A DNA stretch of 64,000 nt from Gammaproteobacteria bacterium (GTDB taxonomy: Bacteria; Pseudomonadota; Gammaproteobacteria; Ga0077536). Under the pieces are notes generated by a model, which saw only the letters and a program-made list of their open reading frames with translations, searched no databases and was not told where the DNA came from. Positions 29,382 through 30,973 of this stretch are shown here, piece after piece. The translations under genes were made by a program, and so were the position numbers. The stretch spans positions 164,985-228,984 of the forward strand of contig JBHIYN010000001.1 in assembly GCA_041984235.1 (NCBI GenBank). Direction: 5' to 3'. Positions within the stretch are counted from its first letter, which is position 1; every line of letters starts with the position of its first letter.

Positions 29382-29909
29382 ATGAGTATCGAATTCGTCG
29401 ACCCACGTGGCGAGACACGGCGCGCCGCGCAAGCCTATGAACATGTCCTCGACGTCACCGTGCCGGCGACCATCGGCCTGCTGGCCAACGGCTTTCCCGA
29501 CTCGGTCGCGTTCCTGGACGCGGTCGAGGTCGCTCTGGGCGAGGCGCTGCCGCAGGCGAGCTTCCGCCGCTACGCCAAGCCGGGCGCCTCGGCGCCGGCC
29601 GACAGCGCGCTGGTCGCCCGCATCGCGGCCGAGTGCGATGCGCTGGTGACCGCCTACGGGCACTGAGGCAGCTGCACATCCGGCACCGTGCGTGACGGCA
29701 TTGCACTGGCCCGCGAGGGGCGCCCGGCGGTGGCCTTCGTGACCACCAAGTTCGAGCCGCAGGGCGACTTCGTCGCCCGCGCCGAGGGCATGCCCGACGT
29801 GCCTCGCGTGATCGTGCCGCACCCGGTGGCCGGCATCGGTGCTGCCGCCATGGCCGCGCTGGCGCGCGACATCGCCGTCACCGTGGTCGAACGGCTGCGC
29901 GCCGGATGA
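29382..29909 (+). CDS. UGSC-motif selenoprotein; TGA at 29664..29666 read as selenocysteine
   Basis: Track ORFs 29382..29666 and 29688..29909 are in the same frame, separated only by one TGA. Read-through gives '...AYGH-U-GSC-TSGTVRDGIALAREG...'. There is a GGAGAA SD before 29382. The gene is co-oriented with selA and selB downstream, and tRNA-Sec is present in the window. Confidence 0.75.
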
Positions 29910-30973
29910 GCGCGCTGCTCAGCGCGGCCGATGCCGATGCCGCACTCGAGCGACTGCACGCCCTGCGCTGCACGGACGGCCTGCCGGTGGTCATTCCGAC
30001 CCCCGAGCGCGTCTCGCGGCTGGTGCTCGCGAGCGGGCTGGACGCCGACATCGAGCTCGGCGTGATGGGGCCGGGTTATGGCGTCGCCACCGTGGAGAAG
30101 GTTGCCGCCTGCGCGGTCATGGCCGGCTGCCTGCCCGACCACATGCCGGTGGTCGCGGCCGCCGTGCGCGCGGTGTGCCGGCCCGAGTTCGATCTCACCG
30201 AGATGCAGTGCACCACGCATGCCATCGCACCGCTGGTCGTGGTCAACGGTCCGGCGCGCGCGGCCGGCGGCTTCGCCTCCGGCTTCGGGCTGATGGGGCC
30301 CGGCCACCGCGCCAACGCCAGCGTCGGCCGCGCCCTGCGCCTGGCCATGATCAACATCGGCGGCGCGCGCCCGGGCGAATCCGACATGGCCATCCACGGC
30401 TCGCCGGCCAAGTTCTCGCTGTGCTTTGCCGAGGACGAGGCGGCCTCGCCCTTCGCGCCGCTGCACACGACCTTCGGCTACGCGCCCGGCGACAGCGCGG
30501 TCATGGTGCTCGGCGTCGAGGGCCCGCACTCGGTGCTGTTCAGCGGCGATGCCGGCGATAGCGCGTCGGCCGAGGCCCTGCTCGACACCCTGGCCGCGGT
30601 GATCGCCAATCGCGGCAGCAACAACTCCTACCTCGGCGGCCGCGCCGCGGTCGCGCTGGTGCTCAATCCCGAGCATGCCGCGATCCTGGCCGGGGCCGGT
30701 CATGGCCGCGAGTCCGTGCAGCAGGAGCTCGCCGCGCGCGCGGTGACCCCGCGCGAAATCCTGCAGCGCCTCAATCCGAAGATGCTGCAGGGCGAGGAAG
30801 CCCTGATCCCGGCAGTGCGCGATCCGGCCCGGGTGCACCTGATGGTGGCCGGCGCGCCCGGCCTGTACTCGGTCGTGATGCCGTCGTGGTGTGCCGGGCC
30901 ACACGGCAACGTCGCGGTGCACGCGGCGGTCGAGCTGGACCCGTACTGCGAATTACCCACGGCCTCCCGCTGA
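29906..30973 (+). CDS. conserved hypothetical protein (355 aa), translationally coupled to the UGSC selenoprotein
   Basis: A long intact ORF whose start overlaps the upstream stop by 4 nt (ATGA). Family not recognised from sequence; it is not SelD-like. Confidence 0.55.
   Translation: [355 protein letters not shown]

Follow-up and report, generated by a model that had tools for sequence, protein, structure and literature searches.

Selenoproteins of the UGSC Family Are Obligately Paired with a Protein Family of Undescribed Fold

Introduction

Selenoproteins of the UGSC family have been listed since 2007-2008 among the most abundant selenoprotein families of aquatic environments, and a 2026 review still enters UGSC as a protein of unknown function. 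The subject of this report is a gene pair in which a UGSC gene is followed immediately by the gene of a 355-residue protein, here called X355 (its family, X). The pair lies within a stretch of 64,000 nucleotides from a member of the Gammaproteobacteria (lineage Ga0077536; GenBank assembly GCA_041984235.1, contig JBHIYN010000001.1), which is referred to below as the window. A first-pass annotation of this DNA had proposed X355 as a dedicated partner of the selenoprotein, and the analysis described here follows up that proposal.

The linkage itself is not observed here for the first time. In a study of ocean metagenomes, Zhang and Gladyshev reported a fusion of UGSC to a domain named Unknown_1, a conserved domain of unknown function with a conserved cysteine that is also free-standing in a few aquatic organisms (Zhang and Gladyshev, 2008; PMC2398784). 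That paper gives neither adjacency statistics nor a thioredoxin-reductase (TrxR) link nor a function for Unknown_1. X is likewise found both fused to UGSC and as a stand-alone protein beside it, and Unknown_1 is probably the X domain. No function has been published for UGSC or its partner in the literature searched, where the partner appears only as an unnamed fused domain. What follows places the linkage on a firmer and broader footing. It further brings in the connection to TrxR, an account of how large the X family is, its lack of a relative of solved fold, and cysteine-type systems that lend themselves to experiment and occur in cultured bacteria.

The Locus and Its Two Proteins

A run of genes on the forward strand of the window leads from a crotonase-type enoyl-CoA hydratase (ECH) through UGSC, X355, an AhpD-like selenoprotein, selA, selB and an esterase to the selenocysteine tRNA (Table 1), with successive gaps of 30, -4, 67, 30, -4, 14 and 82 nt. 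No terminator-like site was found along it. The first-pass annotation had spoken of a selenoprotein/selAB operon; the run of genes bears this out as far as strand and order go, and co-transcription is the part that we infer. The open reading frame (ORF) of X355 is present as described there, with the translation that had been quoted, and the ATGA coupling of the UGSC stop to the X start, an overlap of 4 nt, is confirmed.

Table 1. Features of the UGSC-X locus and of its surroundings in the window.
Feature	Position	Strand	Basis or remark
Double-domain acyl-CoA dehydrogenase, 775 aa	26115..28442	-	Neighbouring gene; divergent
Crotonase-type enoyl-CoA hydratase (ECH)	28575..29351	+	Neighbouring gene; 30 nt upstream of UGSC
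UGSC-family selenoprotein gene, 175 codons including selenocysteine	29382..29909	+	Read-through translation; Pfam PF24696
In-frame TGA read as selenocysteine	29664-29666	+	Context AYGH-U-GSCTSG
Candidate SECIS hairpin	29680..29698	+	Six pairs in two short stems; apical loop CGUGC; starts 17 nt after the U of UGA
ATGA overlap: X start codon (ATG 29906-29908) and UGSC stop (TGA 29907-29909)	29906..29909	+	Sequence
X355, partner protein of UGSC, 355 aa	29906..30973	+	ATG start; unnamed family
AhpD-related CFYUT selenoprotein	31041..32129; Sec codon 31755-31757	+	NCBIfam NF041238, E 7.5e-66; read-through translation
selA	32160..33584	+	Neighbouring gene; Pfam and NCBIfam scans
selB	33581..35494	+	Neighbouring gene; Pfam and NCBIfam scans
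tRNA-Sec (selC)	36830..36925	+	Neighbouring gene; after the esterase gene
ResA-like 'WAxxUGC' thiol-disulfide oxidoreductase (third selenoprotein gene)	38210..39388; TGA 38981..38983	-	Motif FSWGSY-U-GCS

That the upstream gene encodes a UGSC selenoprotein, as had been claimed, follows from read-through of its in-frame TGA: the product matches the Pfam model PF24696 ('UGSC family') over its full length (residues 5-172 of 175, E 1.4e-46) with U-G-S-C at the conserved position, and, once U is written as C, reaches 114 bits with NCBIfam NF041046, slightly short of its 125-bit cut-off. In the public record with which gene calls were compared, that of the metagenome-assembled genome (MAG) contig JBHIVR010000002.1 (GCA_041987945.1), the gene stands as two ORFs of 94 and 73 aa. 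The TGA, within YGH-U-GSCT[ST]G, is kept in all 76 related loci whose available sequence includes the motif. As to spacing, most gammaproteobacterial pairs overlap by 4 nt, and in most Acidimicrobiia the gap between UGSC and X runs from a few to ~120 nt, mostly below 55 nt. At 17-35 nt past the UGA lies a candidate selenocysteine insertion sequence (SECIS) hairpin, whose six pairs are kept in 121 distinct sequences (Alifold) with one compensatory change, C-G to U-A, in 32 of the 121; its folding energy compared with that of shuffled sequences gave no significant single-sequence z-score. Support for the SECIS assignment is moderate, because the same nucleotides also encode an invariant peptide. 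Given the conserved TGA, the short spacing and the kept hairpin, the arrangement is not a product of chance. In a predicted model the UGSC domain has a flavodoxin/Rossmann-like alpha/beta fold with the CxxC at the N-terminus of a helix.

X355 proved as difficult to name as the first-pass annotation had found it. No match was obtained in Pfam, even at E<=10, in NCBIfam, or in the PDB by sequence or by profile, and the structure- and profile-based check that had been proposed found no solved fold relative in the PDB. The protein had been said not to be SelD or a thioredoxin reductase, and both exclusions hold. It has no AIR-synthase-type match in Pfam or NCBIfam, and its pairing with UGSC is not restricted to selenocysteine contexts, as would be expected of a SelD-like protein; nor does it have the Pyr_redox match of a low-molecular-mass thioredoxin reductase, which is recognised by FAD/NAD(P)H Rossmann domains and a CxxC, some of its relatives merely being fused to such a reductase or encoded directly before one. 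No homology to GrdE or PrdA was detected either (Pfam at E<=10; PDB by sequence and profile), and X has neither the shared fold nor the three cluster cysteines of class I fumarate hydratase and related iron-sulfur (Fe-S) hydro-lyases.

The family is nonetheless large. A word-indexed search with X returned 4,660 relatives, the source names being 'hypothetical protein' throughout the 120 matches listed, and HMMER, run exhaustively over 1.84 billion representatives, returned 4,377 clusters (50% identity) at E<=1e-3, 901 of them at E<=1e-30. X merits a profile model of its own. In an alignment of 150 diverse representatives, conservation is highest at D24-G-L-P27, A73-G74-C75, N137, G141-R142, D160, C173, E176 and H257; it reaches 100% for G141-R142, 99-100% for N137, 99% for E176, 92% for C75, 91% for C173 and 89% for H257. 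To judge from this alignment, X shows two conserved cysteines among invariant polar residues, the pattern of an enzyme active site, unlike that of a four-ligand metal cluster. An AlphaFold2 model of X355 built from 27 homologues is confident (predicted local distance difference test, pLDDT, 85; predicted template modelling score, pTM, 0.86). Some X proteins (e.g., P0160) carry a C-terminal extension of ~100 aa with a CxxC, unrecognised by Pfam and NifU-like by eye only. A NifU-like ORF of 81 aa (PF01106, E 5.5e-4) also lies after a UGSC-X fusion, at 4791..5036 on the forward strand of locus L086.

UGSC and X Form an Obligate Pair

Two reciprocal scans carry the case for partnership. One was anchored on X and took the best 80 matches (>=57% identity to X) in genomes, these being MAGs of Gammaproteobacteria and Acidimicrobiia; the other was anchored on UGSC and took the best 80 matches (>=53% identity to UGSC) in metagenomes. 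Because best matches were taken, both samples cover the broad clade of the window only. UGSC adjoins X in all 78 X-anchored loci that have upstream DNA, directly upstream on the same strand in 77 and divergently in one (L079), and the remaining 2 of the 80 stop at a contig end. Conversely, X lies directly downstream of UGSC in 73 of the 73 testable UGSC-anchored loci, the other 7 of the 80 ending less than 150 nt past UGSC.

Pairing also held in every distant subfamily checked, and wherever a locus has several copies the number of UGSC domains always equals that of X domains. A betaproteobacterial contig, for example, carries three UGSC-X systems with the gene of a TctC-type binding protein after every one, and another contig carries three that are flanked by three crotonases, a two-subunit CoA-transferase, a thiolase-like gene and a DUF35 gene. 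Upstream of a tandem X-X protein lies a Sec-type UGSC, and downstream lie an ABC transporter and genes like those of opine oxidase. The gene table of an Actinophytocola MAG leaves every gene near X without a Pfam family, and UGSC is therefore not apparent there; our own hidden Markov model (HMM) finds a Sec-type UGSC in the X operon, with two family III CoA-transferase genes in between. X pairs equally with the cysteine type of UGSC (CGSC), as in cultured Actinomycetes and in many fusions. The operon of cultured Actinomycetes consists of UGSC (CGSC, 182 aa), X, TrxR, a family III CoA-transferase, two acyl-CoA dehydrogenases, a crotonase and a short-chain dehydrogenase/reductase (SDR), and UGSC and X again overlap by 4 nt.

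Protein architectures, read with local HMMs and Pfam among the 150 representatives and in later searches, show the two domains joined in both orders. Full UGSC-X fusions measure 528-573 aa and are all of the cysteine type. A further 120 of 499 collected proteins (410-450 aa; e.g., P0134 and P0141) start with the last 55-75 residues of UGSC and continue into X; these are Sec-type UGSC-X fusions for which the start has been called beyond the TGA. Fusions of the reverse order, X-UGSC (P0181, P0230), stop at the residue just ahead of the Sec position. Public calls systematically mis-annotate the Sec-type fusions, cutting hundreds of them at the TGA. The predicted model of a natural fusion is a confident single body (pLDDT 89, pTM 0.86). 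Adjacency seen from either gene, translational coupling and fusions of both orders together establish X and UGSC as an obligate pair, and the earlier proposal of a dedicated partner is strongly supported.

The CGSC motif itself is less constant in the fusions. Some cysteine-type proteins retain only its first cysteine and a few retain none (P0166, P0304, P0312, P0195, P0220, P0244). Fusions that keep the first cysteine alone point to the first motif position as the nucleophile, and in paralogues that have lost one or both cysteines the domain may have no redox function or serve a structural purpose only.

A Recurrent Thioredoxin-Reductase Module

In some relatives X is fused to a C-terminal pyridine-nucleotide-disulfide oxidoreductase of the TrxR type. 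With such a fusion as query, at least 27 clusters (90% clustering) were found at 64-100% identity over the full length, together with distant full-length matches at 37-40% identity. The redox CxxC of the TrxR domain is kept in 7 of 7 fusions checked (as CAVC, CATC, CADC or CAIC), and a Sec-type UGSC lies directly upstream in the fusion loci, so that three modules stand together. Cultured Actinomycetes show the same association in separate genes: 7 nt past X lies a homologue of thioredoxin-disulfide reductase with the motif CAVC (Pfam Pyr_redox_2, E 6e-34; TIGR01292, E 3e-82), left unannotated in the precomputed table. The UGSC-X pair thus recurrently recruits a TrxR-type flavoprotein. An annotation problem thereby becomes a defined three-component system of UGSC, X and TrxR-type protein, one that can be expressed and assayed because cysteine-type versions occur in cultured Actinomycetes (Streptomyces sp. 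RB5, Nocardioides pacificus).

Gene Neighbourhood

Neighbouring genes were called with our own frame-composition gene finder, which reproduced most public calls in the region, including the acyl-CoA dehydrogenase and ECH genes. Up to four neighbours per side were clustered in 82 loci; the ten largest clusters were annotated with Pfam and the smaller ones assigned by match to window genes or by eye. The ECH-UGSC arrangement of the window recurs in two loci (L002 and L020). Among Gammaproteobacteria the recurring neighbours are the crotonase, the 775-aa double acyl-CoA dehydrogenase, SDR proteins and family III CoA-transferases. Among Acidimicrobiia a MaoC-type enoyl-CoA hydratase is the next downstream gene on the same strand in 27 loci, and is itself followed by an SDR-like or acyl-CoA-dehydrogenase-like gene. 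At least one acyl-CoA family occurs in the flanks of 54/65 long loci of the X-anchored sample, and of 19/30 and 6/8 in two others. One fusion of the two domains adjoins divergent crotonase and HMG-CoA-lyase-like genes. Genes of acyl-CoA metabolism make up most of the neighbours, and the operons are catabolic ones.

Such operon contexts hint at a substrate that is an organic acid taken up by the cell and, in many lineages, processed as its CoA thioester. They are suggestive only, because these families are common in the genomes concerned and the counts carry no background rate. A stronger hint than any family count is the exchange, at the adjacent position, of one type of hydratase for a non-homologous one. 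In Acidimicrobiia (loci L025-L078) the genes directly upstream of UGSC-X encode the beta and alpha subunits of nitrile hydratase together with accessory proteins, and this arrangement, with the MaoC-type hydratase downstream, is seen in about 21-27 loci; it could reflect a functional link or clade synteny.

The first-pass annotation had also counted the neighbouring selAB genes as support for the partnership. This argument does not survive, since the linkage is rare and not conserved: selA occurs near the pair in only 6/65 and 4/30 long loci, and selA and selB are close by in roughly one locus out of ten. selAB was accordingly rejected as a basis for pairing UGSC with X.

Interpretation

We consider it somewhat better than an even chance (a probability of about 0.55) that X355 and UGSC make up a two-subunit thiol- or selenol-dependent oxidoreductase of which X is the obligate partner subunit. 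UGSC would present its Sec-Gly-Ser-Cys at the start of a helix as a redox-active or nucleophilic centre, and X, with its undescribed fold, C75, C173 and invariant Arg, Asn, Asp and Glu residues, would bind the substrate and carry out or complete the chemistry. The oxidised Se-S or S-S form would then be re-reduced by NAD(P)H through a TrxR-type flavoprotein, which is fused to X or encoded beside it in some lineages and would presumably act in trans in the organism of the window. As substrate we would expect an organic acid, in many lineages one processed as its CoA ester. We infer that the two proteins form a complex, which way electrons flow, that X is catalytic and to what class the substrate belongs. 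Of the roles that the first-pass annotation had offered for X, the TrxR fusions and adjacencies in relatives favour a reductase system over a passive binding protein.

As a chain of components, UGSC-X resembles the thioredoxin system (TrxR and thioredoxin, then Msr, PAPS reductase, Prx or ArsC), in that a TrxR-type protein with a CxxC is associated with a small U/CxxC protein and a larger two-cysteine protein. It differs from that system in the fold of UGSC, which in the model is flavodoxin/Rossmann-like rather than thioredoxin-like, and in the terminal component, X resembling none of the known thioredoxin-dependent reductases.

Several observations weigh against the two-subunit oxidoreductase. 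Its chemistry is a guess, as no solved homologue of X was found. In the clade of the window a TrxR-type gene lies near the pair in only 2/65 and 0/30 long loci, so that the reductant would have to come from elsewhere. Fusions that lack one or both UGSC cysteines mean that redox cycling cannot be universal. The neighbour families are common ones, and the pair keeps other company too, such as TctC binding proteins, transporters of the ABC type, genes like those of opine oxidase, and nitrile hydratase.

A bolder form of the oxidoreductase proposal, which we hold as possible and no better than tentative, is that UGSC-X is an unrecognised, widespread Sec/Cys-dependent reductase with a new catalytic fold, supplied from NAD(P)H by a dedicated TrxR-type flavoprotein and reducing organic acids that have been activated with CoA, in aerobic bacteria of waters and soils. 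If so, its chemistry would be analogous to that of glycine and proline reductase, outside anaerobic fermentation, and it would account for the place of UGSC among the most abundant selenoproteins of surface waters.

Glycine and proline reductase also suggest a more specific version of the two-subunit explanation, compatible with it and in our judgement unlikely, in which UGSC would correspond to GrdB/PrdB, its Sec attacking a substrate held covalently on the partner, and X to GrdE/PrdA. Both systems combine a small Sec-x-x-Cys alpha/beta protein (GrdB, PrdB) with a larger substrate-binding partner (GrdE, PrdA) and electrons of the thioredoxin type; the grd operons include trxB and trxA, a parallel to the TrxR link of UGSC-X, and the layout of UGSC is one that we take to resemble the Sec region of GrdB/PrdB. 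Fusions with the first cysteine only also speak for a nucleophile rather than a plain dithiol. Marine PrdB/GrdB-like reads, drawn from the 2008 supplement (PMC2398784), have a common layout with UGSC (strand, U-x-x-C, helix, a 'G-I-P-T-V' strand, 'P-R-x-x-x-x-P-x-G'), and hhalign set Sec on Sec over 69 columns with P 0.0045, a weak similarity in consistent register around the Sec. The hhalign probability, however, was only 7.7%, and we therefore do not claim homology of UGSC to GrdB/PrdB and keep the likeness as an analogy. PF07355 does not match UGSC, the Pfam models of Grd/Prd component B do not match X (E<=10), and X shows no detectable similarity to GrdE/PrdA and no sign of a self-cleaving pyruvoyl site. 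The operons, too, hold acyl-CoA enzymes rather than grdA/C/D or prdC-F, and their hosts are aerobic aquatic bacteria, not Stickland fermenters.

Class I (Fe-S) fumarate hydratase and the Toblerone-fold cyclic amide hydrolases were also compared with X among the closest known systems. That X should be a hydro-lyase or reductase of the iron-sulfur kind, remotely resembling class I fumarate hydratase, with UGSC supplying or protecting cluster ligands, would agree with the hydratase genes frequent near the pair, with the NifU-like ORF after one fusion and with the C-terminal CxxC extension of some relatives, the last resembling NifU by eye only and lacking a Pfam match. We think it improbable, as fold scores are at noise level (template modelling score 0.25, probability <0.5), only two cysteines are conserved in X, and the TrxR fusion favours dithiol chemistry. 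More improbable again is that X serves UGSC as an accessory factor for selenium delivery, folding, maturation or regulation and is no enzyme subunit. The tight translational coupling of the two genes would suit such a factor, as would the presence of selA, selB and selC beside the pair in the window; selAB linkage, however, is rare, X pairs with cysteine-type UGSC in selenium-independent settings, it is twice the size of UGSC with enzyme-like invariant polar residues, and stable covalent fusion in both orders would be unusual for a maturation factor. The selenium-delivery role raised in the first-pass annotation was rejected on account of the cysteine-type partners.

Whatever the chemistry of the presumed oxidoreductase, UGSC was never found alone in the samples taken, but always with one specific, unnamed protein of undescribed fold, and the pairing offers a route to test what this abundant aquatic selenoprotein does.

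Other Features of the Window

In the window the genes selA, selB and selC and three selenoprotein genes are grouped within 10 kb, and no selD was seen in the stretch that holds the cluster. The gene between selB and the tRNA has an esterase/beta-lactamase fold. The CFYUT selenoprotein gene between X and selA is, like UGSC, split in the public record; it is not conserved beside UGSC-X, and a homologue was found in only one other locus (L026), ~6 kb upstream of the pair. The ResA-like selenoprotein scores 319 bits against NCBIfam NF041054 (cut-off 300), and its gene is cut into ORFs of 135 and 249 aa in the public record.

On the reverse strand at 22354..26007, upstream of the acyl-CoA dehydrogenase, lies a three-subunit molybdenum hydroxylase of the xanthine/CO-dehydrogenase type (MoCoBD, Fer2_2, FAD_binding_5), accompanied by ThiS-like and luciferase-like genes. 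A similar MoCoBD gene occurs near a UGSC-X fusion in locus L088.

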